From contig JBBUAP010000004.1 of NCBI GenBank assembly GCA_038058635.1, forward strand, positions 31,196-95,195: a stretch of 64,000 nt of DNA. The letters run 5' to 3'. The notes under the pieces were generated by a model. It did not search any database, was not told the DNA's origin, and saw only the letters and a program-made list of their open reading frames with translations. The translations under genes were made by a program, and so were the position numbers. Positions 537-51,840 of the stretch are shown piece by piece; the stretch's first letter is position 1, and each line of letters starts with the position of its first letter. This stretch comes from Patescibacteria group bacterium (GTDB taxonomy: Bacteria; Patescibacteriota; UBA1384; 2-12-FULL-50-11).

Positions 537-697
537 TAAAAATTACTAAATTACTAAATGGAAAACAAACTACCGCAATTCTGTAACTACGAACGAAGTG
601 AGGAGCGAGCGAAGCGACATTCCGCCAATTCTACCAAGACGATTTGGCTGACAACGTAGTTTGAGTGTAGTATCTATATATAGGAGGGAGGGGACAC

Positions 698-1765
698 ATG
701 GCTGAAGCAATGACAACTGAGATGAAGCACCTGCTCGATCTAGCGATCGAGAAGGGGGCGAGTGACCTGCATATTACTGTCGGTGTTCAGCCGATGATTC
801 GAGTTGACGGCAAGCTATTTCCGGCGCCCGACACTGTGGCCACCACCGCCGAAACGGCCGAGCGATTGCTAATGAGTATTATGACCGCCGAGCAAGTTGA
901 GCGGCTTCATCAACGGCGCGAATTAGACTTCTCGTTTGGTTATCAAAAAACTCGTTTTCGAACTAACGCTTTTTACCAAAAGGGCAATATCGGCGCCGCT
1001 TTGCGTTTAATTCCAGTCCTAATTAAGTCGATGGAGGAGTTGGGTGTCCCGCCAATTCTCGAGCGCTTTACCGAGCCCAGCCAGGGCTTTGTCGTCATCA
1101 CCGGTCCAACCGGTCACGGTAAATCGACGACGCTGGCGGCCTTAATCGAATCAATCAACCTCAAGCGAGCCGATCATATTATTACGATCGAAGATCCGAT
1201 CGAGTATGTTTTTGAGCACAAGAAATCGATTATCGTTCAACGAGAAGTCGGCTCCGATACCAATTCCTTTTCCCGCGCCCTGCGATCAGCCCTGCGCGAA
1301 GACCCTAATGTTATCCTGGTCGGTGAAATGCGCGATCTTGAAACGATCGAGGCGGCCCTGACCTTGGCCGAAACTGGGCATTTAGTCTTTACGACCTTGC
1401 ACACTAATTCTGCCGCCCAGACCGCCGATCGTATGATTGATGTTTTCCCACCACACCAACAACAGCAGGTACGAATGCAGTTGGCCAATGTTTTGCTCGG
1501 CGTTATCTCCCAGCGCTTACTGCCGCGAGTTCAGGGCGGGCGTGTGCTGGCCACGGAAATAATGGTCGCCAACTCAGCCGTTCGCAATACGATTCGCGAG
1601 GGAAAAACCCATCAGTTACCCAACATCATCCAAACTTCGGCTTCCGAAGGCATGATTGCTCTGGACAAAGTCTTAGCCGAGCTTGTTTCTCGTGGTGAAA
1701 TTACGATCGATGTCGCTCTCCAGTGGGCCCTCGACCCCAAAGCATTTAAGATGATGGTTTATTAA
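698..1765 (+). CDS. pilT: Twitching-motility / pilus retraction ATPase PilT
   Basis: 355 aa with Walker A GPTGHGKSTT, Asp box, Walker B and His box (TLHTNSAAQT) typical of PilT; the start at 698 follows a GGAGGGAGG RBS. Confidence 0.9.
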   Translation: MAEAMTTEMKHLLDLAIEKGASDLHITVGVQPMIRVDGKLFPAPDTVATTAETAERLLMSIMTAEQVERLHQRRELDFSFGYQKTRFRTNAFYQKGNIGAALRLIPVLIKSMEELGVPPILERFTEPSQGFVVITGPTGHGKSTTLAALIESINLKRADHIITIEDPIEYVFEHKKSIIVQREVGSDTNSFSRALRSALREDPNVILVGEMRDLETIEAALTLAETGHLVFTTLHTNSAAQTADRMIDVFPPHQQQQVRMQLANVLLGVISQRLLPRVQGGRVLATEIMVANSAVRNTIREGKTHQLPNIIQTSASEGMIALDKVLAELVSRGEITIDVALQWALDPKAFKMMVY

Positions 1766-1864
1766 TGGAAAACTCAAAACTCAAAACTCAAAGCTCAAAG
1801 CTACAGCTCAAAACTCAAAACTTTTTAGTTTCTAGTTATAGTTTTGACTTTTACCTTTTGACTT
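1766..1864. repeat. Tandem AACTCAAA octamer repeats followed by their imperfect reverse complement (long imperfect palindrome)
   Basis: aaaactcaaaactcaaaactcaaagctcaaagctacagctcaaaactcaaaac is followed by gttttgacttttaccttttgacttttgagtt; the arms are near reverse complements of each other. Confidence 0.8.
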
Positions 1865-2953
1865 TTGAGTTACCACCCAATGGCTAAAACCGACTCTCTA
1901 TTCACCTCTCTCTTCGTTCGGGTTAATCACAAAGACCGAGCGTTTCTGGCTCGCCAGCTGGCAGTAATGTTGGAGTCCGGACTGCCAATCACCCAAGCGA
2001 TTCGCTCGTTAATCGAGCAGACCAAGAACCCGTTAATGGAAGAGGTTCTCCAGGTCGTTTTGGTGGACTTAGAGAACGGCTTAAAATTTTCCGTCGCTAT
2101 CAAAAAACATCCTCAGGTTTTCAACGACGTCTTTGTCTCGGTCATTGCTTCCGGTGAAGTGACCGGTCAGCTCGATGTCGTTGCCAACTTGCTGGCCGAC
2201 GAGCTGGAGCGCGATCAGGGTTTCCGAAGCCGAGTCATCGGCGCGTTGTTGTACCCGGCCTTCATCATCATGGCGATGATTGTCGTCGGGATCATTATGG
2301 TCACTAAGATCGTCCCGGCGCTGGAGTTGGTTTTCAAGGAAGCCAACGCCACCTTGCCCTGGACGACCCTGACTGTCATCGCCATCACCAACAGCTTGAT
2401 TTACTACTGGTATGTTTATATTATCGTCATCGTCGGCGGTATTTTTGGTTTGTCGCGCTATCTAGCAACCGTCGACGGTCGACGAAACTCCAACGGCCTC
2501 CTGCTCAAAATCCCGGCCTTCGGGACGATGTTACGCAATATGGAAATGGCTCGCTTCACCCGCATTTTTGGCTTGATGATGCAGGCCGGCGTGCCAATAA
2601 TTCAAGCCCTCGATTCTGTCGCCATGGTTTTGGATAATGTTTTGTACAAGGAATCGCTCAATGTTGTCGCTCGCAATGTCGAGCGCGGCTCACCGATTGC
2701 CCAGTCCTTACAGCGCGACAATTTGTTTCCCGCTACCGTCACCCAAATGATCGCCGTTGGCGAACAGACCGGCAAACTCGAGCAGGTTTTACATAAGCTA
2801 GCTAACTATTACGAAGAGGAAACTAACCAATCAATTAAAAATATTACCGCCTTGACCGAACCGGTCATCTTCATCATCGTCGGTCTCGGTGTCGCTTTTC
2901 TCGTCTTTTCAATCATCGTCCCGATCTACAACCTAGCATCGGTGATAAAGTAA
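1865..2953 (+). CDS. pilC: Type IV pilus platform protein PilC (GspF family)
   Basis: 362 aa polytopic membrane protein with two T2SSF-like repeats (GEVTGQLD..., GEQTGKLEQVL) and the conserved GspF/PilC architecture. Confidence 0.85.
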   Translation: MSYHPMAKTDSLFTSLFVRVNHKDRAFLARQLAVMLESGLPITQAIRSLIEQTKNPLMEEVLQVVLVDLENGLKFSVAIKKHPQVFNDVFVSVIASGEVTGQLDVVANLLADELERDQGFRSRVIGALLYPAFIIMAMIVVGIIMVTKIVPALELVFKEANATLPWTTLTVIAITNSLIYYWYVYIIVIVGGIFGLSRYLATVDGRRNSNGLLLKIPAFGTMLRNMEMARFTRIFGLMMQAGVPIIQALDSVAMVLDNVLYKESLNVVARNVERGSPIAQSLQRDNLFPATVTQMIAVGEQTGKLEQVLHKLANYYEEETNQSIKNITALTEPVIFIIVGLGVAFLVFSIIVPIYNLASVIK

Positions 2954-3152
2954 TGTCAGGAATTACGAAATAACTCGATCCTATTTTAGTAACTTCGAAA
3001 GAAGTGAAAAGCGAGCGTTAGCGACATTCAGTAATTTTTCCCTCTCTTTGCCTCGACTCGCTTGACAAGATTCTAGACACAGTTAATAGTGGTATTAATG
3101 GCTTTCACCAGTCTTAAGACGAGAGGGGTGGTCGACGAAGGTCCAAATGATG

Positions 3153-3170
3153 GGCAAGCGAAAGCTTGCC
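3153..3170 (+). promoter_or_regulatory. 5' UTR stem-loop with GAAA tetraloop upstream of the major pilin gene
   Basis: ggcaagc-gaaa-gcttgcc forms a perfect 7 bp stem about 75 nt upstream of a strong AGGAGG RBS. Confidence 0.4.
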
Positions 3171-3243
3171 ATGACAGGCGTTCGCTTGCCGCGATGTTAA
3201 TTACGCAGCGGCATGCACGCTCATCATTAGAAATAGGAGGAAA

Positions 3244-3804
3244 ATGATAAAAACATTACAAAAAAGAGCTTTTACGCTCATCGAACTCTTGGTGGTTATT
3301 GCCATCATCGGTATCTTGGCTTCGCTTATTATCGTCTCGCTGTCAGGCGCACGTGGTAAAGCCCAGGACACACAACGCAAAAACAATGCTCGAAATTTGG
3401 ATAGTGCCCTATCTCAGCACTATGTCGATAAGTCTGGCTATCCATCGGACGCGGGTTCTGCCGCAGCGAATGGCGCAACTGCAGATGGTGGTAGCGCAAC
3501 CTGTGCTGCTCCTTTGGTAGCTAGCCTAGTAGGTGCTTACTTGACATCCGGTACCGCTTGTGACGAGTTGAGTACTAGCGCAACCGCTGTTTCTCGATAT
3601 GCAACATCTGCAAACACGAGTGGCCTAGCAAGTTACTACTCGCTAGGTTGGGGTCTAGCGGCTACAGCTGATTCTACAGTCACGGTTGGCAACGGTGTTT
3701 ATACCACAGCCGATGGATCGCTTAACCTACCACAGGTGGACTTCACAATTGCGAGTCCCTGGGCTGATGCCCAACTAGTCTTCGTTGTTTACGGTCCGCA
3801 GTAG
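3244..3804 (+). CDS. pilA: Type IV (major) pilin, class III signal peptide
   Basis: MIKTLQKRA|FTLIELLVVIAIIGILA: prepilin leader plus the invariant E5 hydrophobic helix; strong RBS; followed by a strong terminator. Confidence 0.8.
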   Translation: MIKTLQKRAFTLIELLVVIAIIGILASLIIVSLSGARGKAQDTQRKNNARNLDSALSQHYVDKSGYPSDAGSAAANGATADGGSATCAAPLVASLVGAYLTSGTACDELSTSATAVSRYATSANTSGLASYYSLGWGLAATADSTVTVGNGVYTTADGSLNLPQVDFTIASPWADAQLVFVVYGPQ

Positions 3805-3883
3805 TCGGCTAAAAGCCTCGTATCCCTCAACGACAAGCGTCTCGGGATAAAAATCTCACTCAAAAGAGAAGAGGATGAAAAAC

Positions 3884-3912
3884 CCGCCCTCCCGGGCGGG
3901 TTTTTCTTGATT
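3884..3912 (+). terminator. Rho-independent terminator after the pilin gene
   Basis: aaaaacccgccc-tccc-gggcgggtttttcttg: a GC hairpin followed by a T-tract. Confidence 0.75.
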
Positions 3913-3941
3913 CTTGAATCTTAAATCTATACGCTAATTCT

Positions 3942-4730
3942 ATGGTGGGGGTGGTGATTGCCTTTATTTTTGGGCTGGCTTACGGCTCGTTTCTGAATGT
4001 CGTTATTTTGCGTTTTGATGATTGGCGGTCGATCGCTAAAGACCGTTCACACTGCCCTAATTGCAAAACTCAACTGTCCTGGTGGGATTTAGTGCCGTTA
4101 TTTAGTTTTGCCTACCTGCAGGGAAAGTGCCGCTACTGCCACAAACCAATTTCTTGGCGGTATCCAATCGTTGAGCTAGCAACCGCCGTTTTGGTGGCAG
4201 CCGGCTATTATTTATTATTCAACAGCCAAGTATTAACGCATTGGCATTCAACGATTGGTCTAGCAGCTCTAGTCGTGGCCATTGGAGCGATGATAACTAT
4301 CTTTGTTCACGATTTGACAGAAATGATGGTGCCGGACTTGATGTCAAACCTACTGCTGGTCGCGACCGTAATTTATGCCCTGGTAGTTCATTACGATCCG
4401 CTCGGCTTGCTCTTTAGCGCTATGGTGGGCTTCTTGCCGATTCTTCTGTTGGTCATACCCAGCCGCGGCACCTTGATGGGGGAGGGGGATATCAAAATCG
4501 CCGGAGCCCTAGCGATACTAGCTGGCTGGCCAAATGCGGTGGCGTTTATGATAATCACCTTCTTACTCGGTGGAATATTTGGTGCAATCGCGCTGGCAAC
4601 CAAGCGCGTCAAGATGAAAACCGCCGTCCCGTTTGGCCCATTTCTAATTTCGGCCGCCATAATAATCTTGTTTTGGGGCGACGCCATCACTAACTGGTAC
4701 CTAGGAACGATAGGATATGGATACTACTAG
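3942..4730 (+). CDS. pilD: Prepilin peptidase (A24 family) PilD
   Basis: 262 aa; the N-terminal Zn-binding CPNC...CRYC motif and multi-TM peptidase A24 core with conserved Asp residues are present. Confidence 0.9.
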   Translation: MVGVVIAFIFGLAYGSFLNVVILRFDDWRSIAKDRSHCPNCKTQLSWWDLVPLFSFAYLQGKCRYCHKPISWRYPIVELATAVLVAAGYYLLFNSQVLTHWHSTIGLAALVVAIGAMITIFVHDLTEMMVPDLMSNLLLVATVIYALVVHYDPLGLLFSAMVGFLPILLLVIPSRGTLMGEGDIKIAGALAILAGWPNAVAFMIITFLLGGIFGAIALATKRVKMKTAVPFGPFLISAAIIILFWGDAITNWYLGTIGYGYY

Positions 4731-4800
4731 ATGAATTTCAAATTTCTAACTCTGAATGCAATGAAGAGCGAGCGAAGCAACATTTCTAATTACTAATGAA

Positions 4801-5592
4801 ATGATTAAATATCAAATTTGGGCATTCAAGAATTCAATTAGAAATTGGAAATTTGGCATTAGAAATTTACAGCCAGCTTTCACTCTTATCGAACTGCTCA
4901 TAGTCATCGCGATTATTGCTATTCTAATTGGTGTGTTGGTTCCGAGTATGAGTCGAGGTTTGTCCGGTAATCGACTGGCTAGCGATGTCGAAGTACTGCG
5001 GGCCAAAATCGAAGAAACTCGGCTACTGGCTGGTTCAACTCAGACAAACGACGAGGACATTTTGGTCGGTTCGGAGGTTCCCGGGACTGATCGCGTTGGC
5101 TATTACGGAATCTTAATTCCGGGTTCTGATATCATTAGAGACCCTCAATACGCTCCTCCATTTTATGCTATCGTTCGTCTTTCTGATCCATTTACTTTCA
5201 GGAGCGATCCCGGATATTGCAGTGGAAATCAAGCATTAACCGACGCTATCAACAATAATATGGGAAGCGGTACTTGCCTGATTGAAAAAGTCGAGCTTAC
5301 CAAGGGAGTGACATATAAAGATTTCTCTACCTATAATATCCATGCCAAACTGATCGCATTCAAAGTCCCTACTCAGCAAGTTTCTGAAATATACTGCCCA
5401 GGACCCTGTGGCGGGAATGGTAATGTTTATACTCTTCTTGAACCACCGCTCTTTCTTCAGCGCGGCGAAAATAACTTGCCAGTCAACCCGCCTAGCAATA
5501 CTTACTTCAAGCTAAAGTACAACGACAAAACCGCCACTATCGAAATCGAGCCCTACACAGGCAAACTAGTAGTAGTATATAGTGATATTTAG
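4801..5592 (+). CDS. Minor pilin / pseudopilin (prepilin-type N-terminus)
   Basis: Leader ...RNLQPA|FTLIELLIVIAIIAILIG carries the class III signal; the rest has no recognisable globular family. Confidence 0.7.
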   Translation: MIKYQIWAFKNSIRNWKFGIRNLQPAFTLIELLIVIAIIAILIGVLVPSMSRGLSGNRLASDVEVLRAKIEETRLLAGSTQTNDEDILVGSEVPGTDRVGYYGILIPGSDIIRDPQYAPPFYAIVRLSDPFTFRSDPGYCSGNQALTDAINNNMGSGTCLIEKVELTKGVTYKDFSTYNIHAKLIAFKVPTQQVSEIYCPGPCGGNGNVYTLLEPPLFLQRGENNLPVNPPSNTYFKLKYNDKTATIEIEPYTGKLVVVYSDI

Positions 5593-6309
5593 ATGCTAAA
5601 GAGGGGCTTCTCACTGCTCGAGACACTGATTGCCACTGGGGTCTTAATCGTGGTGATATTGGGCGTAACCTCACTTTCCAACTCGCTGATTGCCGGTACA
5701 GTGGTCAGCGCAGATAAGACCATCATCAACCGCTGGGCCTCGGAAGGTATCGAGCTGACGCAGAAAATCCGCGACGATACGATACTTGATGATTCCACCT
5801 CGCCAAATTGGTTTGAGCAAGCCATCGCCGAAAACGGCGACGGTTACGGGTGGTTCAAACTAAGCACAACCGATAGTAAAACCTGGAGCATTACGCGGGT
5901 AACTGGTGACTATAACAAAGCAATTGCGACCGACTTCATCAAAGATTCTATCAGCGAAAAACTGACGAGCGATACGACCACTGGCTACCGGCTTATCTGT
6001 GTTGAGGCAGTTGGAGCTAAAGACTCAAGGGCTAATGATGATTTCTTTTGTAATACTACCGATACCCAGAGGGTTCGTGATGGCGTCCGAACCGATCCCA
6101 ACGCTACTAATTGTCAAAACGGGGATCTCTACTGTCAGATGACTTTTGAAAGCGTTAATAAAAACCGCCTAACTTCGTTGGACAAAAAAATAATTCCTTC
6201 TGGAAACGCCGTTAAAATCCGTTCAGTTGTCGTCTGGCAAGACAAAGATCAATTCCGATCAAGCTCCATGGCAACTTTGATTACTAATTGGAAGGGATAT
6301 GAACAGTAG
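5593..6309 (+). CDS. Minor pilin / pseudopilin
   Basis: MLKRG|FSLLETLIATGVLIVVILG is a classical G-1/F+1/E+5 prepilin N-terminus; its start abuts the stop of the previous gene. Confidence 0.7.
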   Translation: MLKRGFSLLETLIATGVLIVVILGVTSLSNSLIAGTVVSADKTIINRWASEGIELTQKIRDDTILDDSTSPNWFEQAIAENGDGYGWFKLSTTDSKTWSITRVTGDYNKAIATDFIKDSISEKLTSDTTTGYRLICVEAVGAKDSRANDDFFCNTTDTQRVRDGVRTDPNATNCQNGDLYCQMTFESVNKNRLTSLDKKIIPSGNAVKIRSVVVWQDKDQFRSSSMATLITNWKGYEQ

Positions 6310-7120
6310 CGGAGCTACTGTTCTTTCTCACCCGAAGTTCGAAATGAGCAATAAAATGACGAATCACGAATCACCAATCACGAATCAGATACCATTTCGT
6401 TTTTCGTTACTTCGAGGCGGAGCCGAGAAGCGAGCGTCAGCGACATACAATATTCGTTATTCAAATTTCCGCGCTTCGCGTGGCTACACTCTGATTGAGA
6501 TGCTGATTTCGGTGACGATATTTTCAGGATTGCTCATCATCGTGCTCGGGACCGTTGCTTCATCGAGTAGCTCATCAGCCAAGGTTAGTCTGCTGCGTGA
6601 TAAAAGCCAAGCTGCCCGATCACTGATTGACCAAATTTCGAACGACCTGCGCTATGTCGACCTAACAGCTAATCTTAATAACGAAGACCAAGGATTTCTA
6701 ATCGATAGATCGGCTCGAACCAGCTTGACCATGGCCTTACTACTGCCGGGTAAAGACAAGGACACCGGCTTGATTAGAAAGGAATATAAAATCGAACAAC
6801 AGTTCAACAATCGCCTGACACTCACATTAAAAGAAGGCCGAGGTTGTAAGCGAGCTGGCTACCTTGCATTTAGTGCCTGTGACCAAGAATCCGAAAAGAC
6901 CGACCTACTGTCGAGCGCCTATACTCTCGGTCAGGAAACTGGGTTTTCGTCAGAGTTGAGCGGTCTGAATGTATTGGAAGCCGAACAACAGACTCCGCCG
7001 ATTTCGCCGTTTGTCTCGATGACATTTTCGCTCAAGCCCGTTGGACTAACCACTAGCTGCAGTTTAGATCCGGGAACTTGCTACAAAGTTTCAACGACAG
7101 TTAATATGGCTTCAAAATGA
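6299..7120 (+). CDS. Minor pilin / pseudopilin (true start uncertain; mature protein begins about 6485 at G|YTLIEM)
   Basis: ...RASRG|YTLIEMLISVTIFSGLLIIVLG prepilin motif; the in-frame ATG codons upstream of it imply a 43-62 aa leader, and that leader overlaps a conserved intergenic repeat element (6407-6447). Confidence 0.6.
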   Translation: MNSSGATVLSHPKFEMSNKMTNHESPITNQIPFRFSLLRGGAEKRASATYNIRYSNFRASRGYTLIEMLISVTIFSGLLIIVLGTVASSSSSSAKVSLLRDKSQAARSLIDQISNDLRYVDLTANLNNEDQGFLIDRSARTSLTMALLLPGKDKDTGLIRKEYKIEQQFNNRLTLTLKEGRGCKRAGYLAFSACDQESEKTDLLSSAYTLGQETGFSSELSGLNVLEAEQQTPPISPFVSMTFSLKPVGLTTSCSLDPGTCYKVSTTVNMASK

Positions 7121-8219: not shown

Positions 8220-8642
8220 TTGATAATGAATCAAATTGTAATTCACACCGACGGGGCGTCGCGCGGTAATCCAGGAGCGGCGGCGATTGCTTTTGTTATC
8301 GACGGCTTGCCCAGTGGCGCTCTCGAATATAAAAAAGCGATCGGAATCTACTCGAACAATCAGGCCGAATATCGAGCTATGCTTTCGGCGCTAGAAAAAT
8401 TGGTCGAGCTGGAGATTAAAGATTCCGAGATCGATTTTCTGGCCGATTCCGAGCTAATGATTAAACAAATCAAGGGCGAATATCGGGTGAAAGACGCTAA
8501 TCTTCGACCGCTCTACGATCAGGCTATGGGTCATTTCGCCACTCTCAAAGCTGGCGGTAACGAACTGCAATTCACCGCCATTCGTCGCGAGCGCAACACC
8601 AGAGCCGACCGACTGGCAAATATTGCTTTGGACGAGGCGTGA
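8220..8642 (+). CDS. rnhA: Ribonuclease H (RNase HI family)
   Basis: IHTDGASRGNPGAAAIAFVI...NNQAEYRAML...ADRLAN shows the RNase H DEDD-type catalytic motifs. Confidence 0.85.
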   Translation: MIMNQIVIHTDGASRGNPGAAAIAFVIDGLPSGALEYKKAIGIYSNNQAEYRAMLSALEKLVELEIKDSEIDFLADSELMIKQIKGEYRVKDANLRPLYDQAMGHFATLKAGGNELQFTAIRRERNTRADRLANIALDEA

Positions 8643-9757
8643 TGTTTCGTCGTTTTTTGTCCGCGCCGATCGATTGGGTGACGATAATTATTCCGACCAT
8701 CCTCACCGTCACCGGCATCATTACTATTTACACCATCACTTTTGCCCAAGAAAAATCTGGTCTAGCCACTAGCCAGATTATTTTTGCCCTAATTGGCTTA
8801 GTGACGATGGTCGTGGCGATGTTTTCTGATTATCGCCATCTGCGCTCGTTTGCCAACATTCTTTACGCCCTAGGCGTAATCATGCTAATTCTATTAGTCC
8901 CGCCGTTAGCCGCCAAAATACCGTTTACCCTCAAAATATTCGGCGCTTATCGCTGGCTAGATCTGGGTTTCTTCCAGCTCCAGCCTGGCGAAATATTTAA
9001 ACTAATCGCCGCAATTTTTGGTGCCAAAATCTTGACTCAACATATCGGCTTGATCGACTGGAAAAAGACACTGGTCTACATTCTTTTTAGCGCTGTCCCA
9101 ATATTGCTCGTTCTTTCCCAGCCAGATCTGGGAACAGCTTCAGTTATCCTGGTTGTCTTTGCCGCCTGCTTTTTAGCCGCCCGTCCATCAGGTCGGATTG
9201 TGACGACAATCCTGACTGTGTTTATCATCTCCTTGCCGCTGATTTGGGCCAATCTCCGGCCATATCAACAAAGTAGGGTCGAAACTCTACTCAACCCCGC
9301 CAGCGATCCGCAGGGACAGGGCTACAATGTCCGCCAATCATTGATTGCCATCGGTTCGGGCGGGCTGACTGGCCGAGGTTTCGGTCAGGGTTCACAGACA
9401 GTTCTAAACTTTTTGCCAGTGGCCCATACCGACTTTGTCTTCTCTGGTTTTGCCGAAGCAACCGGATTTGTCGGCTCGATAGTCATCATTTTCCTCTATA
9501 TGCTGCTTATCTACCGAGCTATCAATATCGCCAGTATCTCGACTGACAAGTTCGGCCAGTTGCTAGCCATAGCTATTGCGGCCAAACTTCTCTTTCAAGT
9601 GACGGTTCATATCGGTATGAATCTCGGGCTATTACCGGTGACAGGCATTCCATTGCCATTTATGTCGGGCGGTGGCACCTCGCTCATTATCGATTTACTA
9701 TGTATCGGCATCTTGCAAAGCATCCACATCCGCCATAAGAGAACAGGACTAGGGTAA
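8639..9757 (+). CDS. ftsW: SEDS-family peptidoglycan polymerase FtsW/RodA
   Basis: 372 aa 10-TM protein with conserved SEDS motifs (GQGSQTVLNFLPVAHTDFVFS, PLPFMSGGGTSL). Confidence 0.85.
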   Translation: MMFRRFLSAPIDWVTIIIPTILTVTGIITIYTITFAQEKSGLATSQIIFALIGLVTMVVAMFSDYRHLRSFANILYALGVIMLILLVPPLAAKIPFTLKIFGAYRWLDLGFFQLQPGEIFKLIAAIFGAKILTQHIGLIDWKKTLVYILFSAVPILLVLSQPDLGTASVILVVFAACFLAARPSGRIVTTILTVFIISLPLIWANLRPYQQSRVETLLNPASDPQGQGYNVRQSLIAIGSGGLTGRGFGQGSQTVLNFLPVAHTDFVFSGFAEATGFVGSIVIIFLYMLLIYRAINIASISTDKFGQLLAIAIAAKLLFQVTVHIGMNLGLLPVTGIPLPFMSGGGTSLIIDLLCIGILQSIHIRHKRTGLG

Positions 9758-9783
9758 TTAATTACTTTTGACTTTTGACCTTT

Positions 9784-9803
9784 GTCGCTTCGCTCGCTTC
9801 TCC
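9784..9803 (-). repeat. Copy of the conserved intergenic element (core GAGAAGCGAGCGAAGCGAC) in reverse orientation
   Basis: Plus strand reads gtcgcttcgctcgcttctccc, the reverse complement of the core seen at 601, 3010, 4767 and 6430; flanked by TTTTGAC tandem repeats. Confidence 0.7.
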
Positions 9804-9888
9804 CTTTGGTCGCAGTGAGTTTTGACTTACTTTTGCCGTTGACCCCAACAGAGAATTAAGCTACACTAGCTTCTGTTAATATATATAC

Positions 9889-34524: not shown

Positions 34525-36962
34525 GTGACTTTCTGCCGACCTATCTTATCTACACCATCTTAGCCGCGATTGTCATCCTGCCGTTGGCGCTAATGTGGTT
34601 TTTCCGTTATTGGCAGAAAAAGGATGCGCTAGGCGATGTTAACTCTTTAGTTTGTCTATTGGTGTCGCTGCCGAAAGAAGCGACCATCGATCCGCACGCC
34701 GCCAACGAACCCGTCAAAGACTTCAAGGGTTTGATTGCGCCGACAGAACAATTTTACTCGGCGCTAACAACAATAATTCACCAGCGTCATTTTATCGACT
34801 GGCTTTTTAGCACCCCCGCTCACATTAGCTTTGAAATCTATTCAGTCGGTGGCGTGATTTCGTTTGGAATTATCTGTCCAAAGCGGATTCGAACGATCGT
34901 TGAACGACAGGTTCACAGTTTTTTCCACAATGCTCAAATAGTCATTGGTGTCCCACCGAAGGTCTTCACTAGCGAACAAGAACATGTCTCGGGCGTTGTA
35001 TTCGAACAAGGTAAGAACTTTGTCCTCCCCCTCAAGACCTATCAGTATCTTGAGGCTGATCCGCTTAATACTCTAACGACAGCGCTGACCAAATTGCAGG
35101 GCTCGGGCGCCGCTACAATTCAAATGCTGATTCGGCCGATTAGCGACAATTGGCGGATGCACACTGGTATTGCCAGCGGCCATGTTGTCGCAAATAAAAT
35201 GCACCTCGTTAACCGGACTGGTACTGCTCGAGTTCTTGGTACCATTGGTGAAGCAATAAAAACCTCCCCACCGACAGAAATCTCAAAGCAAACCCAGCGC
35301 TCGCCAGCGCAAGAGGAGTTGCTAAAAGCCCTTCAAGAAAAAGGCAATAAAACTGGCTTCGAAACTATCATTCGAGTGCTGGCAACTGGCGACACTCCGA
35401 CGGCAGCCGAAGAAAACACCAAGGCATTGATTAGCTCCTTTTCCCAGTTTTACTCACCGCAATTAAATAGTCTGAAATACCGCCAGATCGAACAAAAACG
35501 AATTTCACGCGATTATCTGCTCCGACTGTTTTCCGGCGCGCCAAAGATGATTTTGAATGTCGAGGAGTTGGCTAGTATTTATCACTTCCCAAATCGTTTC
35601 AGCGAAGTCCCGGGGATGAAATGGGTCTTGGCCAAAACTTTGCCATCACCACCAAACTTGCCCAAAGAGGGAGTGGTCATTGGCGAAAGTAATTATCGAG
35701 GCGAAAAAAATCTAGTTCGACTTCAGGACGAAGACCGCCGTCGTCATATCTTTATGATTGGCAAAACTGGTACTGGTAAGACGACGCTCTTTGAGATGAT
35801 GATCGAGCAGGATATGCATAACGGCAAAGGGCTTTGCTTTATCGATCCACTTGGCGACGCCATCGAGTCGCTATTAAAGAAAGTGCCGACGCACCGGGCT
35901 AATGATGTGATTGTGTTTGACCCGTCCGATATCAAATTTCCACTTGGCTTAAATCTACTTGAATACACCAAACCCGAAGAAAAAGACTTCTTAATTCAGG
36001 AAGTAATCGAGATATTCTACAAACTGTTCGACCCGAACCGGACTGGTATCGTTGGACCCCAGTGGGAGCATTGGGCGCGCAATGCCGCCCTGACGGTGAT
36101 GAGTCGCCCCGAAGGAGGGAGCTTAATCGATTTGCCCCGTCTTTTTACCGACGACGCTTTCCGAGAGGAATCAGTTTCGTTTGTCAGAGACCCGGTTGTC
36201 AAAGCCTTCTGGGAGCAACAGCTAGCCAAAACGGCCGACTTTCACAAATCGGAGATGTATAACTATTTCATCTCTAAGTTTGGCCGATTTATGACCAACG
36301 ATTTGATGCGTAATATTATCGGACAAACCAAAAGCTCTTTTGACCTAAGGGAATTGATGGATTCCGGCAAGATTTTGTTCGTCAACCTCGCCAAAGGTAA
36401 AATTGGCGAGATTAACTCAAATCTATTGGGCTTAATTTTGGTTTCAAAAATCCAAGTCGCGGCTTTCAGTCGGGCAGATACGCCCGAAGAACAGCGGAAA
36501 GATTTCTATCTTTATGTCGATGAGTTTCAGAACTTTACAACCGATACTTTCGCGACGATATTGGCCGAAGCTCGCAAATATCGCCTCAATCTTAATGTCA
36601 CCAATCAGTATTTCGCCCAACTGACCGAACATATTCGTGACGCCGTTATTGGTAATGTGGGAACACTAATTTCCTATCGTATCGGTGCTGAGGACGGCGA
36701 GTATTTAGTCAAAGAAATGCCCGGACTAACGGCCGAAGACCTGACTAACCTTGATCGGTTCCAGGCATATGTTAAACTTCTAATCGATCTGACTCCAAGC
36801 AAGCCGTTCTCGCTTTCGGGTATCAAAAGTGCCAACCCTGGTTCAGTTGAGATGTCCGATTGGCTCAAAAAGTCCACCCGGGCTAAATATACCAAGCAAC
36901 CAGTTGTCTTTGCCCCGATTGCTAAACCAGCAGAATCACCAGTAACCACCCCAAAACCATGA
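34521..36962 (+). CDS. Single-TM membrane protein with C-terminal FtsK/HerA-superfamily P-loop ATPase domain, VirD4/TrwB (type IV coupling protein)-like (paralog 1, 813 aa)
   Basis: N-terminal TM helix; ~400 aa unassigned domain; Walker A FMIGKTGTGKTT; Walker B-like FYLYVDEFQNF; Arg finger-like ARKYRLNLNVTNQ; homologous along its length to the next gene. Confidence 0.6.
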   Translation: MSDFLPTYLIYTILAAIVILPLALMWFFRYWQKKDALGDVNSLVCLLVSLPKEATIDPHAANEPVKDFKGLIAPTEQFYSALTTIIHQRHFIDWLFSTPAHISFEIYSVGGVISFGIICPKRIRTIVERQVHSFFHNAQIVIGVPPKVFTSEQEHVSGVVFEQGKNFVLPLKTYQYLEADPLNTLTTALTKLQGSGAATIQMLIRPISDNWRMHTGIASGHVVANKMHLVNRTGTARVLGTIGEAIKTSPPTEISKQTQRSPAQEELLKALQEKGNKTGFETIIRVLATGDTPTAAEENTKALISSFSQFYSPQLNSLKYRQIEQKRISRDYLLRLFSGAPKMILNVEELASIYHFPNRFSEVPGMKWVLAKTLPSPPNLPKEGVVIGESNYRGEKNLVRLQDEDRRRHIFMIGKTGTGKTTLFEMMIEQDMHNGKGLCFIDPLGDAIESLLKKVPTHRANDVIVFDPSDIKFPLGLNLLEYTKPEEKDFLIQEVIEIFYKLFDPNRTGIVGPQWEHWARNAALTVMSRPEGGSLIDLPRLFTDDAFREESVSFVRDPVVKAFWEQQLAKTADFHKSEMYNYFISKFGRFMTNDLMRNIIGQTKSSFDLRELMDSGKILFVNLAKGKIGEINSNLLGLILVSKIQVAAFSRADTPEEQRKDFYLYVDEFQNFTTDTFATILAEARKYRLNLNVTNQYFAQLTEHIRDAVIGNVGTLISYRIGAEDGEYLVKEMPGLTAEDLTNLDRFQAYVKLLIDLTPSKPFSLSGIKSANPGSVEMSDWLKKSTRAKYTKQPVVFAPIAKPAESPVTTPKP

Positions 36963-39900
36963 ATGTAGCGTTAATCAACCTAATCTTCACCGGCCTCTTT
37001 CTATTCGGGGCAACAATGTTGTGGTATCGGGCCAACAAATTTCGCAAGAAAATAAATTGGGAGGAGCCAGGCGCTTACAGCTTACTTTGCATTTCCGTGC
37101 CGAAAAACAACGAACGAACTCCCCAAGCGGCCGAGCAAATGTTTGCGGCCATGCACGGCATTTTCCGCTCTAGCGCCCAGCAACAGGCCCACCTTAGTTT
37201 TGAGATTGTTTCCAAAGCCCACGCCATCAATTTTTACACCTACGTGCCGACGGATTTGCGAGACTTCGTCTCGAGTCAAATTTTCGCTCAATATCCTACT
37301 GTCGAAATCAGGGAAATCGCGCCTGACGATGACTACACGACCTTAACCGACGAGAAACATATTGCCGCTACTGAACTTGATTTGAAAAAACCGACCGCTT
37401 TTCCGATTAAAACTTTTCAAAACTTTGAAGTTGATCCGCTCTCATCGATTGCTGGCGCTCTCTCCTCGGTCAATGAACAGGAGGAGGTTTGGGTACAGGT
37501 ACTGATCAGACCAATCGATGACGACTGGCAGGACTTGGGTAAAACCGAGGTTAAAAAGCTGAAAGATGGCTTCAAGTCGTTGGGTTTGAGGCAATTACTA
37601 AAAGCCGAGCTAAAGACCATGCTTTTCGATCTGACCAAGCACGCCCTAACAGGTCCACCTCCCGAAGAGAAGAAAAAAGACGACAAGAAAAAGGACGAGA
37701 AAGACACGCCGGAGTCGGCAGCGATTAAGGCGATCGAAGAGAAAATTACTAAACTCGGTTTCGCCACCAACATTCGAATTTTAGCGGCTGGTAGCGACGA
37801 GTATTCGGCTCGGGCTAAACTAGAACAGGTGGTCGGTGCTTTCAAACAATTCAATACTATCAACCTTAACGCCTTTATAGCTAAAGACATTACCAGCGAT
37901 CGGGCCGCTCATGAACTTTTTACGAGTAGAGTTTTTGGAGAGCACACCATGATTTTTAATATCACCGAACTGGCCTCAGTTTATCACTACCCATCGGAAA
38001 CAGTGGCGACCCCGACGATTGCCTGGGCGGGTTCAAAAAAGGGCGAACCACCAGCCAATCTGCCACTAGAAAATGTCGTGCCGGCCGACGAGCTAACAGT
38101 GTTTGGCCAGACTAACTTCCGTAGTCAGGTAAAGAGGTTTGGTATCAAAAGGAAAGATCGTCGCTTGCATATGTACATTATCGGTAAAACCGGCACCGGT
38201 AAATCGACGCTGATGGAGAATATGATTATCGACGATATTAATGAAGGCAGGGGAATGGCCGTAGTCGATCCACACGGTTCGCTCATTCAACATGTACTAG
38301 AATTTATCCCCGAAAACAGAATTCAGGATGTGATCTATTTTAACCCAGCCGATCACGAACACCCCGTCGGGTTCAATTTATTAGAAAATGTCGATCCCGA
38401 ACAGAAGAATATTGTTGCCTCCGGAGTAATCGGCATTATGGAGAAGATTTTCGGCGAAGTCTCTTGGGGCCCGCGATTGGAGTACATTTTGCGCAATGTT
38501 ATTTTAGCGCTTTTAGAATACCCAAACTCTACTTTCATGGGCATTATGAGAATATTGACCGACAACGCTTACCGACGACTGGTCGTCAACGAAGTCAAAG
38601 ATCCGGTCATTCGCGACTTCTTCATTAACGAGTTTGAGAAGTACGAGCCAAAGTTTCGAACTGAAGCGATCGCCCCGATTCAAAATAAGGTCGGCCAGTT
38701 TCTATCGGCCTCAACGATTCGCAACATTGTCGGCCAGCCTAAATCGACTATTGATATCCGCCGCATTATGGACGAGGGCAAAATACTCTTAGCTGACTTA
38801 TCGATCGGTAAGATCGGGGAAGACAACTCCGCCCTACTTGGCTCGATGTTGATTACCAAAATTCAGTTGGCGGCGATGGGGCGAGTCGATACGGCTGAAA
38901 GTGAACGGCGCGATTTTTACTTGTATGTTGATGAGTTTCAGAACTTTGCGACCGAATCGTTTGCGACTATTCTGTCGGAAGCCCGCAAGTACCGTCTCAA
39001 TCTGGCGATGGCCAACCAATATACGGCCCAAATGCCGGAAGCCGTTTCTAATGCCGTCTTTGGCAATGTCGGGACGATGATCAGCTTCCGCGTTGGGGCG
39101 CAAGATGCCGACACCTTGGTTAAAGAGTACGAGCCAGTCTTTGACGCTAATGACTTAGTTAATCTAGATAACTTCCAGATATACCTAAAGATGGCCATCG
39201 ACGGCGTGACTGTACCGGCCTTTTCGGCTGGTACATTGCCACCACGTACGGAGAAAACTCATCTTGTCGATCAAATCATTGCCAACAGTCGTCTGATGTA
39301 CTCACGACCGGTTGAGGAGGTAGAAGATTACATCACCGAATGGTCAACACCGATAAATTTGTCAGACCCTTCGAAGCAACCGATACCTCAACCCTACGAA
39401 GAACTGAAGACAAAGCCCAACGCCTTCGAGAAAGATAAAGCTCGCTCTCCAATCATCGGAGTAGAAGAGCAATCTAGTCCCCAGCCCCTAGCTCCTAGTC
39501 CCGACGAAGTAGGGGAGAGCGAAGAAAAAAAGGAAGCCGAAAAGGCGCCAAAAGTATTTGAGGAAGAGGGGACTGAAGCGACGAAAGCGGCCAAGACAGA
39601 GCCGGGTCGGGTGGAATTACCAAGAGGCATCAAGACCGAAATTATCAAAGACAGATTCGATCGACAGTGGTATGCGGTGACGGAAGAGGGCAAGATTCAA
39701 GGACCAGGATTAAAGAGTCAAGAGTTAAGTGATAATACTTCAGATGAGTCCAGTGTCCAGTCCCCAGTTCCTAGTCCCACTGAAAGTGGGGGAGAGAGGC
39801 AAGCCGAAGAAGAGTCTAGTTCTCAGTCCCTAGCTCCTAGTTCCACCGAAAGTGGGGGAGCAGAAGTCGTAGAAAATACAGAGCCTCCGGTCCAGAGTGG

Positions 39901-40042
39901 GGGAGAGGCGACCGAAAAAGACCAATTGATTAGCTGGGATGATATTGAGCAGCTTGATATCCAAGCACCAATTGAGCCAGTTAGCGAGCCAGTTCAAAGC
40001 AGTCCCGATCAGGGCCTGACGCCCTTGGACGAAATCCGTTAA
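36959..40042 (+). CDS. Single-TM membrane protein with VirD4/TrwB/FtsK-like P-loop ATPase domain and long acidic repeat-containing C-terminal tail (paralog 2, 1027 aa)
   Basis: TM helix MNVALINLIFTGLFLFGATMLWY; Walker A MYIIGKTGTGKST; Walker B FYLYVDEFQNF; ARKYRLNLAMANQ; ~250 aa Glu/Ser/Pro-rich tail with three ~60 nt repeats. Confidence 0.6.
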   Translation: MNVALINLIFTGLFLFGATMLWYRANKFRKKINWEEPGAYSLLCISVPKNNERTPQAAEQMFAAMHGIFRSSAQQQAHLSFEIVSKAHAINFYTYVPTDLRDFVSSQIFAQYPTVEIREIAPDDDYTTLTDEKHIAATELDLKKPTAFPIKTFQNFEVDPLSSIAGALSSVNEQEEVWVQVLIRPIDDDWQDLGKTEVKKLKDGFKSLGLRQLLKAELKTMLFDLTKHALTGPPPEEKKKDDKKKDEKDTPESAAIKAIEEKITKLGFATNIRILAAGSDEYSARAKLEQVVGAFKQFNTINLNAFIAKDITSDRAAHELFTSRVFGEHTMIFNITELASVYHYPSETVATPTIAWAGSKKGEPPANLPLENVVPADELTVFGQTNFRSQVKRFGIKRKDRRLHMYIIGKTGTGKSTLMENMIIDDINEGRGMAVVDPHGSLIQHVLEFIPENRIQDVIYFNPADHEHPVGFNLLENVDPEQKNIVASGVIGIMEKIFGEVSWGPRLEYILRNVILALLEYPNSTFMGIMRILTDNAYRRLVVNEVKDPVIRDFFINEFEKYEPKFRTEAIAPIQNKVGQFLSASTIRNIVGQPKSTIDIRRIMDEGKILLADLSIGKIGEDNSALLGSMLITKIQLAAMGRVDTAESERRDFYLYVDEFQNFATESFATILSEARKYRLNLAMANQYTAQMPEAVSNAVFGNVGTMISFRVGAQDADTLVKEYEPVFDANDLVNLDNFQIYLKMAIDGVTVPAFSAGTLPPRTEKTHLVDQIIANSRLMYSRPVEEVEDYITEWSTPINLSDPSKQPIPQPYEELKTKPNAFEKDKARSPIIGVEEQSSPQPLAPSPDEVGESEEKKEAEKAPKVFEEEGTEATKAAKTEPGRVELPRGIKTEIIKDRFDRQWYAVTEEGKIQGPGLKSQELSDNTSDESSVQSPVPSPTESGGERQAEEESSSQSLAPSSTESGGAEVVENTEPPVQSGGEATEKDQLISWDDIEQLDIQAPIEPVSEPVQSSPDQGLTPLDEIR
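39473..39915 (+). repeat. Three-plus imperfect ~60-66 bp tandem-like repeats inside the 3' end of the paralog-2 CDS
   Basis: Repeated peptide SSxQ(S/P)LAPS(P/S)TESGGE..EE at 39473-39526, 39748-39813, 39814-39873 (partial copy at 39883-39915). Confidence 0.7.
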
Positions 40043-48518: not shown

Positions 48519-51500
48519 TTAGCTGCAGCCCCCGGTAGTTGAGCCGCAGGATAGACAGGTGTAGCAAGTGCCGGTTTTGAAGGTTAACGAGCCACAGCTC
48601 GGGCAAGGCGGCGCATCGGTTTGCTGAAGTTTTCGCGCTGGGATTGTTTCGATTTCCTCCATTGGTGGCGCTACTGGAGGTGCGACAGCTTCTGGGGTGG
48701 CAGTCATGTCACCATTGGTTGGTTCGGACGACTTCGTTGGCACGGGTACGGCGCCAAAGTCGAGCTGCTCCTGGGAACTGGAAGTCTCGCCATCGGCCTT
48801 AATCCCCAGCTCGACCTGACCTTCGGGTGTTAAGAACTTGATGCCGAGGTAGCGAGCAATGTAGTCAATAATTGACTTGGCGATGCGAATTTGCGGGTTG
48901 GTGGTAAAGCCGTACGGTTCAAAGCGGCTGTTAGCAAATTGACGAACAACCATCGTCATCGGGACGCCGTATTGCAGGCCAATCGAAATTGATTTGGCGA
49001 AAGCGTCCATCAAGCCCGAAATAGTACTGCCCTGCTTGGCCATGGTGACGAAGATCTCGCCCGGGGTACCGTCATCAAACAACCCAACGGTTATATAGCC
49101 CTTGTGCCCCGAAATGCTGAATTTATGAGTGATTGATCGCCTTTCGTCCGGCATTCGGCGACGCTTGGGGGCGTAGACAATTTTCTCAACAACCGTCTCG
49201 ACCACTTCAGTTTTATTCTCGAGATCGTCCTTTTTGGTATTGAGCGGCTGGGAAAGTTTGGAGCCGTCGCGATACAAAGCCAGCGCTTTCAGCCCGAGCT
49301 TCCAAGATTGAAGATAAACTTCCTCGACATCCTCGATGGTCGCCTCGTTAGGCATATTAATCGTTTTAGAGATTGCGCCAGAGATGAATGGCTGGACGGC
49401 CGCCATCATTCGGACGTGAGCCAGTGGGGCGATAAAACGCTTTCCCGTTGGCCCGCAACGATTAGCGCAGTCAAAGACCGACAGGTGCTCGTCTTTAAGC
49501 TCGGGTGCGCCCTCAACCGTTTGGGTGCCACATATAATAGTGTTTGATCGGTCGATCTCTTCTTGGCTGAAGCCGAGTCGAGCCAGAAGGGAGAAGCTCG
49601 ACCGGATTTCTTCCGCTTCGGTGATCGCGAGGCGGGCAAAAATTTCCGAGCCCAACACCATACGGTTAAAGGAGAAGGTGATGTCAAACGAGCTTTGTAG
49701 AGTGGTTTCGACCTTGTCGATTTCGTCGGTGGTCAGGCCTTTTGCCGCTAGACTACTGCGATTAATCGGTGAAGAATCGACAAAGGCACCGGTTCCAACG
49801 GCGTAGTCGATGACTGCCTGTTGCTGCTGGCTGGTGTAGCCAAGATTCTTCAGGGCCTGTTTGACAGCAGTGTTAACGATTTTCATCGAGCCGCCGCCGG
49901 CCAATTTTTTGAACTTAACTAAAGCGAAGTCTGGCTCGACGCCGGTGGTGTCACAGTCCATTAACAGACCGATTGTGCCAGTAGGGGCAATTACTGTCGC
50001 CTGGCTATTGCGGTAGCCGAACTGCTCGCCCAGAGCGACGGCTTCGTCCCAATCCTGGTGGGCGGCGGTTAGCAAATCGGTGTGGTCGTAATTAGCACTA
50101 ATGGCGTACGCGGCTTGGCGATGCATTTTCATGACATTTAACATCGGGGCACGATTTTTGGTGAATCCTTCGAACGAACCCTTGACTGCCGCCATCTCCG
50201 CCGAAGTCTTGTAGGCATGGCCGGTCATAATCGCCGATAAAGTGCCAGCAATAACTAAGGCTTCCGGCGAGTCGTAGGCGATCCCTTTCAGCATCAATAA
50301 GGTGCCGAGGTTGGCAAATCCCAGTCCAAGCGGTCGGTAGTCGTGGCTGTTACGGGTGATCGGCTCGGTTGGGTAGCTCGAAAGATCGACCTCAATCTCC
50401 TGGGCGATAAACATAATCTTACAGGCATGGCGGTAGCCCTCGATGTCGAAGTTGCCCATCTCGTCGGCGAATTTGACAAGATTGATCGAGGCGAGATTAC
50501 ACGCACTGTCATCCAGGTGTAAATATTCGCTGCACGGGTTTGAAGCGTTAATCCGACCGGTATTAGGAACCGTGTGCCATTTGTTGATAGTAGTGTCGAA
50601 CTGCACTCCCGGGTCAGCGCACTGCCAGGCGGCGTTAGCAATAGCATCCATCAATTCTTTAGCGCGATAGGTTTTGTGGGGCTCGCCGTTAGAAACATAT
50701 CGGGTCGTCCATTCACCGTCGTTGGCGGCGGCTTCCATAAATTCGTCAGTAATGCGGACGGAGTTGTTGGAATTCTGGCCGGAAACGGTGTGGTAGGCCT
50801 CACCGTTGAAATCCGATGAATAGCCAGCGGCAATCAAAGCCATCACTTTTTTCTCTTCATTAAACTTCCAGTTAATGAAATCCTCAATTTCCGGGTGGGT
50901 CATGTCAACGACGACCATTTTGGCTGCTCGTCGAGTGGTGCCGCCAGATTTGACGGCGTCAGCGCCACGATCAAACACTCTCAAGAAGCTCATCATACCA
51001 CTCGATGTGCCGCCGCCGCTTAACCGCTCATATTTGCTGCGCAGGCGAGAGTAGTTAGCCCCGGTGCCAGAGCCAAACTTGAAGACGCGCGATTCGGTTT
51101 TAAGGAGGTTAAAAATGGCGTCGAGCGAATCCTCTACCGCTAAAATAAAGCAGGCCGAGCACTGGGGGTTGCGATAAGAATCTTTGGTTTCGAGCACTTT
51201 TTCTTGCTCAAAATCCCAGTAGAAACTGCCGCCAGAGCCGGCGATCTTATATTGATGATACAAACCGCAGTTGAACCAAACTGGCGAGTTAAAGGCGGCT
51301 TTCTGATAAGTCAGCAAATGGGTCAGCTCGTCCTCGAAAGTAACCCGATCTTCGTTCGAGGCAAAATAACCAAATTTCTCGCCAAAATCAGCGATAGTGT
51401 GAGCGATGCGGTAAACGGCCTGTTTTAAAGAAACCTCTCTCCCCTCTTTGGTCGGGACGCCGGCCTTGCGCAGATATTTATAAGCTAAAATATCGGTCGC

Positions 51501-51796: not shown

Positions 51797-51840
51797 TTTG
51801 TCGCTGGCGCTCGCTTCTCGTCAAAGACTCGAAGTCAGCA
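51797..51840 (-). repeat. Copy of the conserved intergenic element in the nrdJ 5' leader (same orientation as nrdJ)
   Basis: Minus strand reads tgacttcgagtctttgacGAGAAGCGAGCGccAGCGACAaagc, matching the element at 589-623, 2993-3029, 4754-4786 and 6407-6447. Confidence 0.7.

Follow-up and report, generated by a model that had tools for sequence, protein, structure and literature searches.

We describe here a short DNA element that occurs six times in a 64,000-nucleotide stretch of a Patescibacteria group bacterium (contig JBBUAP010000004.1, positions 31,196 to 95,195; hereafter the window, meaning the whole stretch), where a preliminary description had noticed a repeat of about 40 nt concentrated in a type IV pilus locus. 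We found that the element has no job specific to the pilus locus. Instead, the six sites are lineage-specific small dispersed repeats, and they represent a new family that resembles the repetitive extragenic palindromic (REP) sequences and the small dispersed repeats (SDRs) of cyanobacteria. We place the element with these repeats because its position is not conserved, its orientation is mixed, some copies lie inside open reading frames (ORFs), an empty site exists in a relative, copies are found nested or in doublets, and the family is confined to one clade. The explanation that we favour, with a probability of roughly 0.6, is that of a mobile or rapidly turning-over dispersed repeat that is read by a trans-acting protein.

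The presence of a repeat at six sites was borne out by an alignment of the sites and by a covariance model trained on 32 copies, namely the 6 of the window and 26 from other genomes. Run over the 64-kb window with its filters off, the model returned six matches at 51.7-57.3 bits (E 3e-15 to 2e-13), while the best match that is not a copy reached only 13.2 bits; therefore, the window contains exactly six copies and these are not a product of chance. The 18-nt hairpin half alone was found twice against 0.06 expected, and an independent repeat finder recovered the same relations (families D2 and D20, inverted pairs I1 and I2). Over the unit, the window copies are 59-85% identical in pairwise comparison (mean 73%), which is less than the 80-90 percent initially claimed. 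The claimed concentration in the pilus locus holds, since 5 of the 6 copies fall in the first 10 kb, a region that has about 18% of the intergenic bases of the window (binomial P ~0.001). The local clustering of the window copies is thus real.

All copies can be written in a common frame, A-C-T-x1-x2-G-A / apical part / G-A-y2-y1-A-G / CGAGCG / 1-2 free bases / AGCGACA, with a unit length of 34-37 nt that increases where a second palindrome is nested in the loop. In the fold of the family, C-T-x1-x2 and y2-y1-A-G form a base stem, and the two G-A steps oppose each other as a conserved internal loop of tandem G·A that is topped by the apical stem-loop; in most copies the apical part measures 7 or 9 nt, corresponding to 2-3 pairs and a 3-nt loop. 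The stem is followed on its 3' side by an invariant tag, CGAGCG-N1-2-AGCGACA. The spacer length does vary by 1 nt, as had been noticed; in the wider catalogue it is 1 nt in 32 copies and 2 nt in 43. On the other hand, the ACTTC-GAAA-GAAGT hairpin with a GNRA loop, first put forward as the structure of the element, can be formed only by the copy at 2992 and differs from the fold of the family.

Covariation was measured over the 32 copies. The proposed pairs are formed in 87.4% of the cells, compared with 72.7% in shuffled data and 36-49% in controls with slid partners, and changes on both sides of a pair were counted in 42 cells (15.4 in shuffles); of 500 shuffles, none attained the observed value. 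The 47 copies that could be parsed cleanly have 41 distinct apical sequences between them; 44 of these copies have a Watson-Crick first apical pair and 40 a Watson-Crick second pair, the latter being G·T in 5 more. In the same set, x2-y2 switches between C-G and T-A, and 25 copies have two purines (A·G or G·A) at x1·y1. The G-A/G-A loop and the purine·purine pairs are found on one strand only, and that strand is therefore the folding one. The counts of G·T and A·C mismatches (9 vs 9 overall, 9 vs 4 in the apical stem) are too weak for choosing between the strands.

Most copies are singletons, and a small number form tail-to-tail or tandem doublets. Four different backgrounds carry the palindrome CCGCCAGCTGGCGG nested in their apical loop, and it was found nowhere else in the sampled DNA. 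At one locus of a relative (L068:5886-6069), five variant units of 37 nt (TCTTGA...GA-AAGACGAGCG-CT-AGCGACA) stand head to tail with no spacers between them. We also considered a closing helix made by pairing of the left flank with the spacer and the following AGC, which looked promising for the GCTG...CAGC copies; this idea was dropped because across the family the pattern tracks subtype and heptamer type and not base pairing. Searches against Rfam, with gathering and relaxed thresholds, gave no match on any copy, the only weak matches in the window being at the pilA terminator (3838-3939), and a search for tRNA and tmRNA found none.

The element is restricted to one clade, that of groundwater Saccharibacteria-like genomes from the Hainich aquifer. 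We scanned 185,579 bacterial genomes, one per species, with the tag pattern. Among the matches listed there are at least 110 stretches, at least 32 of them in two metagenome-assembled genomes (MAGs) of Candidatus Saccharibacteria, CAYHNZ01 and CAYIGA01 (project ERP119705). The remaining listed matches are nearly all single and belong to unrelated, mostly G+C-rich genomes, as chance predicts, and no cyanobacterial genome is among those listed. A cyanobacterial source of the window, which the heptamer arrays had suggested, was rejected once the scan pointed to the Saccharibacteria MAGs. The window genes are syntenic with, and 70-82% identical in DNA to, those of the two MAGs. Full-length copies were also found in MAGs labelled Berkelbacteria (L108) and Patescibacteria (L040); since their genes are 65-77% identical to the same clade, these two genomes are members or close neighbours of it. 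When the hairpin frame was added to the pattern, the stricter search retrieved 53 metagenome stretches, of which almost all come from the Hainich aquifer (wells H43 and H51). In these stretches the model finds 77 copies, some of these being the same site in parallel assemblies. The PilT of the window itself occurs on Logan assemblies of ERR3858118 and ERR3858116. In total, about 130 copies are known across related genomes and metagenome contigs, while viral contigs gave 0 matches. The copies are mostly intergenic, with a density of about 0.1 per kb, or 6 copies per 64 kb.

Evidence of turnover comes from orthologous intergenic regions, which we compared between the window and two relatives, L019 (MAG A) and L023 (MAG B). 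The region from pilD to minor pilin 1 has a copy in the window, none in L019, which carries 36 nt of other repeats in its place, and a different subtype with different heptamers in L023. Before minor pilin 2, a plus-strand copy in the window corresponds to a minus-strand copy in L019 and to none in L023. Before the RNase H gene the only copy is that of L019. The ftsW-rplU region contains about 75 nt of heptamers and a copy in the window, is 15 nt long in L019 and is not covered in L023, whereas between pilT and pilC the window has heptamers only, L023 has a copy and L019 is not covered. These comparisons show directly that the positions and orientations of the element are not conserved among relatives. 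The leader of nrdJ provides a clean filled and empty pair, resolved to the base. The empty site of the relative L003 reads ...GTTGCTG / TTTGCCAGTTGCC..., and the filled site of the window reads ...ATTGCTG / 37-nt element / AAGCTG / TTTGCTAGTTGCC..., so that the site is an insertion accompanied by a second, imperfect version of the 6-7 nt that precede it; apart from the missing copy, the leader of the relative is conserved. A search based on the flanks recovered more filled and empty pairs, in which the genes are about 80-94% identical and the intergenic filler cannot be aligned. Considering these data, copies come and go fast relative to the surrounding genes.

The flanks of the element are themselves repetitive. 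In 41 copies, the 6 nt on the left and on the right of the unit match on average at 4.0-4.2 of 7 positions in the best register, compared with 2.4-2.6 of 7 for random pairings of flanks, and 20 of the 41 real copies reach at least 5 of 7. Typically the flanks are short period-7 arrays, and period 7 is also the commonest tandem period in the window (17 of 42 rows of the Tandem Repeats Finder output). Arrays adjoin copies 4 and 5 (Table 1), a tandem array AAATTACT x2.5 of period 8 lies near copy 1 at 540-559, and heptamer-like units flank copies 3 and 6 too. The preliminary description was right about tandem arrays at three of the sites, whose periods are 8, 7 and 7 and not 9, 8 and 7 as it had given them; its statement that such repeats accompany every copy does not hold for the copy at 2992, which has none.

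The arrays also occur apart from the unit and in larger assemblies. One subtype is a composite of about 170 nt with inverted heptamer arms; one genome carries it at five loci and L108 at one. A composite that lacks the core, about 100 nt long and built as (AAAACTC)n - TTTTTAGTTTCTAGTTATAG - (TTTTGAC)n with inverted-repeat arms, occupies the pilT-pilC region of the window (1766-1864) and recurs at about 85% identity in L019:6279-6386, between RNase H and ftsW. As this is a different intergenic region, the heptamer beds are themselves dispersed.

Of the copies located between genes of the same direction, 22 are sense and 12 antisense (14 and 12 in an earlier subset), and in both orientations the copies are closer to the preceding stop (median about 40-50 nt) than to the next start. 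Only 5 of 49 copies in relatives are near pilin-like genes. Some copies are found inside genes. The copy at 6409 had been assigned to the 5' part of a minor pilin ORF, and we confirmed that it is in frame in ORF 6299-7120, in the coding part for an extended leader peptide of minor pilin 2. In the window as in L019, this frame is open from an upstream ATG through heptamers and element, even though the two elements have opposite orientations, while in L023 minor pilin 2 has an ordinary short MFRRG leader and no copy. The extended leader is presumably removed by the prepilin peptidase, and an insertion there should therefore be harmless. At L091:3376-3412, a 1930-aa ORF that probably codes for a surface protein contains an element with heptamers in frame, which there encode ...SYVADARSSSITQSQQSASRKLQAES....

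Based on these findings, the reading of the element as a miniature mobile repeat, one of those first suggested, fits the ~130 copies in relatives, the varying sites and orientations, the direct repeats of 6-7 nt and the in-frame copies. In the mechanism that we propose, a trans-acting protein would read one strand of the unit in single-stranded form, recognising the hairpin by its shape and the tag by its sequence. We favour recognition of a single strand because an invariant tag stands beside a stem that is free in sequence but paired, and because of the tandem G·A loop. Such recognition is known from HUH-type enzymes, and equally from many RNA-binding proteins. Recognition would either copy the unit into new intergenic sites or keep it there. 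New sites would preferentially be 7-nt tandem arrays, and a direct repeat of 6-7 nt would end up on each side. The turnover would then be caused by mobility and a dedicated protein should exist, with an intermediate that may be either DNA or RNA.

Several observations weigh against this explanation. The flanking repeats are imperfect and range from 6 to about 16 nt, the longest being 12-13 nt at the copy at 586 and about 16 nt in L125, which a fixed staggered cut should not give. Furthermore, each subtype tends to occur with a particular type of heptamer flank. The copied unit may thus be larger than the core, or the element may have spread by local duplication or recombination and not by transposition. 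The hairpins are also thermodynamically marginal. Minimum free energies range from -1.2 to -10 kcal/mol for the window copies, and nested copies in relatives reach -13.6 kcal/mol; folding z-scores of -1.0 to +2.0, with RNA and DNA parameters, show no unusual stability, and among the window copies the family fold is the fold of minimum free energy only for the two of 37 nt. Because of this marginal stability the structural claim is carried by covariation, and so weak a fold would require a partner protein to keep it in place. Finally, an all-against-all comparison of the ORFs in copy-bearing loci revealed no recurrent family and no adjoining mobilising gene.

A further point against it concerns the one transposase that we did find. 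A tblastn search with an IS200-type consensus identified a gene between pilA and pilD in two relatives (L019:900-1484 and L023:2166-2744), which matches Pfam Y1_Tnp (PF01797) at 50-63 bits, above the cutoff of 23, and the NCBIfam model for the REP-associated tyrosine transposase (RAYT; NF047646) at 62.5 bits, below the cutoff of 80. The gene is flanked by inverted copies of a different palindrome, ACACTGAAGGAC[A/T]GTCCTTCAGTGT, which has a few other copies elsewhere, and it is absent from the window (orthologous place 3805-3941) and from the other sampled loci, to which the search extended. Since other palindromes flank the gene and the window does not have it, we rejected it as the mobiliser of the element. 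Y1 transposition is not known to leave flanking direct repeats. We regard the RAYT-like gene as a candidate for the class of enzyme and not as an identified mobiliser.

In a more ambitious form of the mobile-repeat explanation, the unit and the 7-nt arrays would be two products of a single, undescribed insertion machinery whose target is a single-stranded hairpin and whose cuts are offset by about 7 nt. With every insertion a heptamer would be duplicated, one would remain after every loss, and the arrays would be the footprints of these events. We consider the chances of this version slim.

The main rival to a mobile repeat is a domesticated host site, bound as DNA or RNA by a host protein with a genome-wide housekeeping task, for which spread would be secondary. 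Its roles could be those proposed for the REP sequences and bacterial interspersed mosaic elements of E. coli, namely protection of mRNA 3' ends, transcription punctuation, or binding of nucleoid or topoisomerase proteins. The tag and the G-A/G-A positions are invariant, and perfectly kept, across at least three genomes whose genes are 70-80% identical, and the six strong copies of the window are accompanied by no decayed ones; both facts count against a purely mobile repeat, and the conservation could reflect selection for a host function. A host site would also be consistent with the location of the copies nearer to the preceding stop than to the next start in both orientations, with the slight sense excess, and with the sense orientation of all four copies in the pilus operon. 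However, one third of the copies between co-directional genes are antisense, orthologous sites in relatives have no copy, the hairpin is not followed by a T-run and is not picked by a terminator scan, and its stability does not exceed that of shuffled sequence. The proximity to stop codons is equally predicted by neutral tolerance of insertions, because promoters and leaders are constrained. We therefore judge a host site to be unlikely, although it is the alternative that survives best.

We find it very unlikely that the unit is a cis-acting RNA element that serves the type IV pilus operon and a handful of additional genes in particular, be it in processing, stability or attenuation. Four sense copies among the pilus genes, one in the nrdJ leader and a covarying fold would suit such an element. 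Nevertheless, the pilus loci of relatives have their copies elsewhere, inverted or of another subtype, the nrdJ leader of a relative is otherwise conserved but without a copy, the copy at 9783 is antisense, 44 of the 49 copies in relatives are not beside pilin-like genes, and Rfam gave no match even at relaxed thresholds. In addition, the copies at 2992 and 9783 are located upstream (23-36 nt) of promoter-like sites whose -35 boxes relatives conserve, and thus outside any conserved leader. The comparative data already contradict this reading, including, for the pilus locus, the RNA processing or stability element that the preliminary description had envisaged.

The operator or promoter function suggested at the same time fares no better. 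It would make the two AGCGA direct repeats, 10-11 bp apart, the site of a response-regulator-type protein that co-regulates the genes, and indeed AGCGA...AGCGA recurs at one-helical-turn spacing in every copy, two of which stand 23-36 nt upstream of promoter-like sites. Yet a double-stranded site gives the apical stem no reason to covary, the distance to the promoter and the orientation (22 vs 12) vary, the position is not conserved, some copies are inside ORFs, few are close to pilin-like genes in relatives (5 of 49), and the conserved pilA, rplU and nrdJ promoters occur in relatives without the element, the -35 box of pilA being conserved in L023, which has no upstream element. An operator is in our view highly improbable. 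With dispersed copies, target duplications and unconserved sites, which the preliminary description had itself set against regulation, the regulatory readings fail. Least probable of all is a DNA uptake sequence read by the pilus or competence machinery, which would account for the clustering in the pilus locus and for the specificity to one clade, but known uptake sequences are 9-12 nt long and occur about once per kb, coding DNA included, whereas this element occurs at ~0.1 per kb and almost wholly between genes, has a covarying hairpin with no role in uptake and is not associated with pilus genes in relatives.

We compared the element with the known classes of short repeats. Elhai et al. 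2008 reportedly described SDR1-8 of Nostoc punctiforme and relatives as non-coding dispersed repeats of 21-27 nt, which are said to have predicted hairpins with compensatory changes, to be nested, to lie in heptamer arrays or small composites, and to show recent movement with no enzyme identified. These cyanobacterial SDRs appear to be the closest description to our element, the likeness being one of description. As described, both are small dispersed non-coding repeats of one clade with a covarying hairpin, embedding in heptamer arrays or composites, nested insertions and signs of recent movement. They differ in that the unit described here is longer (34-37 vs 21-27 nt), carries an invariant single-stranded tag of 16-17 nt, and belongs to a Saccharibacteria-like lineage of the Candidate Phyla Radiation (CPR), whereas SDRs are reported as confined to Nostocaceae (PMC5861425).

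With REP sequences and REPINs (PMC3116915, PMC3733652) the element shares a short imperfect palindrome, a conserved tag that stays unpaired beside the stem foot, and a RAYT-type Y1 transposase gene in two related genomes. It may also be like them in its tens of mostly extragenic copies, which have both orientations and occasionally form inverted doublets. Tagged REPs have a conserved unpaired tetranucleotide, GTAG or CGTC, at one end (PMC3733652). Two defining features of REPs are lacking here, as the tag is neither GTAG nor CGTC and is long and 3' of the stem, and the RAYT genes of relatives are flanked by another palindrome and not by the element. In a third, the arrangement in inverted pairs, the element probably differs as well, most copies being singletons. 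In addition, the element has flanking direct repeats. Only the variant array of L068 has GACGAGCG, with CGTC on the opposite strand at the stem foot. Among the papers searched, none connected REP, REPIN or RAYT to Patescibacteria or Saccharibacteria.

The arrays recall the heptamer repeats of other bacteria, the short tandemly repeated repetitive (STRR) sequences of cyanobacteria and the TAACTGA repeat of Beggiatoaceae (PMC4679880), which are likewise period-7 arrays, mostly intergenic and occasionally in frame near protein ends. In contrast to these, many different heptamers and not one are found here, the cases examined showed no consistent location immediately ahead of start codons, and the heptamers serve as a bed for the hairpin element. 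Miniature inverted-repeat transposable elements (MITEs) are similar in being dispersed, non-coding and bordered by short direct repeats, and one subtype of our family, the composite of about 170 nt, has inverted heptamer arms; however, the core has no terminal inverted repeats (5' ACTNNGA vs 3' AGCGACA), no parent insertion sequence is known and the length of the flanking repeat is not fixed.

Other classes were considered and rejected. For an intrinsic terminator, no copy is among the terminator-like sites, and the stem is followed by CGAGCG... and not by a T-run. For a CRISPR array, the copies are kilobases apart and the sole tandem array, that of L068, is without spacers. For a leader or riboswitch, there is no conserved position or sense orientation relative to a gene family and no Rfam match.

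The gene order of the window was assigned by Pfam scans and is given with the copies in Table 1.

Table 1. Copies of the element, adjoining heptamer arrays and genes of the window (copies are divided into 5' stem, apical part, 3' stem and tag).
Feature	Position	Strand	Score (bits)	Sequence or remark
Copy 1	586..619	+	56.8	ACTACGA-ACGAAGT-GAGGAG-CGAGCG-A-AGCGACA
Copy 2	2992..3026	+	57.3	ACTTCGA-AAGAAGT-GAAAAG-CGAGCG-TT-AGCGACA
Copy 3	4749..4782	+	53.4	ACTCTGA-ATGCAAT-GAAGAG-CGAGCG-A-AGCAACA
Copy 4	6409..6445	+	52.3	ACTTCGA-GGCGGAGCC-GAGAAG-CGAGCG-TC-AGCGACA
Copy 5	9783..9816	-	51.7	ACTGCGA-CCAAAGG-GAGAAG-CGAGCG-A-AGCGACA
Copy 6	51799..51835	-	52.9	ACTTCGA-GTCTTTGAC-GAGAAG-CGAGCG-CC-AGCGACA
Heptamer array AATCACG x4.7	6355-6387	+		just 5' of copy 4
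Heptamer array ACTTTTG x3	9764-9784			adjoins copy 5
pilB, 3' end	before pilT
pilT	698-1765
pilC	1865-2953
Pilin (pilA)	3244-3804
Prepilin peptidase (pilD)	3942-4730
Minor pilin 1	4801-5592
ORF with pilin-like N-terminus	5593-6309			no family assigned
Minor pilin 2	6299-7120			N_methyl motif at aa 58-76
ORF of no known family, then RNase H	between minor pilin 2 and ftsW
ftsW	8639-9757			rplU next
Class II ribonucleotide reductase (nrdJ)	48519-51755	-		ftsZ upstream of nrdJ, also -

Copy 1 sits in the pilB-pilT intergenic region, 50 nt past the stop of the upstream gene, and is flanked on both sides by the 12-13 nt direct repeat CCGC(C)AATTCT. Copy 2 is placed between the pilC stop and the pilA promoter, a promoter-like TTGACA-17-AATAGT being found downstream of it at 3062-3090. 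Copy 3 is found within the 70 nt that separate pilD from minor pilin 1, with ATTTCTA on each flank. Copy 5 is located between the ftsW stop and the rplU promoter and is antisense to both genes; beyond it, the promoter TTGACC-17-TACACT (9839-9867) is kept in the relative L019. Copy 6 is in the nrdJ 5' leader, 44 nt ahead of the start codon. We confirmed that it is sense to nrdJ, as had been stated, and the domain scan identified this gene as a class II (B12) ribonucleotide reductase.

Some features of the window deserve mention in their own right. The heptamer arrays AATTAGA x4.6 (4836-4867) and AATCACG x4.7 (6355-6387) are inside the two minor pilin ORFs, both between the start codon and the N-terminal methylation motif; they could be phase-variable switches, since adding or removing a single 7-nt unit would cause a frameshift. 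The pilin leader (3062-3243) holds blocks that are conserved in L023 (about 1240-1400) and in L019 (1-60), namely GGCTTTCACC, GGGGTGGTCGACGAAGG and ATGATGGGCAAGCGAAAGCTTGCC...ACAGGCGTTCGCTTGCCGCGATG. It may be a structured leader, and Rfam gave no match for it. A perfect tandem 11-mer, TACGGGGTTTG x2.1 (ACAAACCCCGT on the nrdJ strand), is located at 51905-51951 directly upstream of the conserved nrdJ promoter TTGACA and is kept in the relative L003, and may represent a putative regulator binding site. Finally, a large ORF (36959-40042) contains three blocks of CCCCAGT-like heptamers followed by the hairpin CCCAC-YGAAA-GTGGG-GGAG (39466-39860), a motif whose exact form was in none of the sampled loci.

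CPR genomes are regarded as streamlined, yet much of the scarce intergenic space of the genome considered here consists of fast-changing heptamer arrays and a tagged hairpin repeat, that is, of a Nostoc-like repeat landscape in a genome of roughly 1 Mb. For the annotation of such genomes, this means that the sites of the element should not be taken for regulatory motifs of pilus genes, and they mark likely differences between strains of these uncultured bacteria. As a substrate of 34-37 nt with defined invariant and free positions, the unit provides a compact handle for finding the protein that reads it. Moreover, the association of heptamer arrays with small hairpin repeats, known from cyanobacteria and still unexplained, can now be studied in a second, independent lineage. 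If a single insertion machinery did produce both unit and arrays, and if it were also behind the Nostoc-type landscape of STRRs and SDRs, it would represent a class of mobile DNA that is shared by distant phyla and active in CPR genomes of about 1 Mb.

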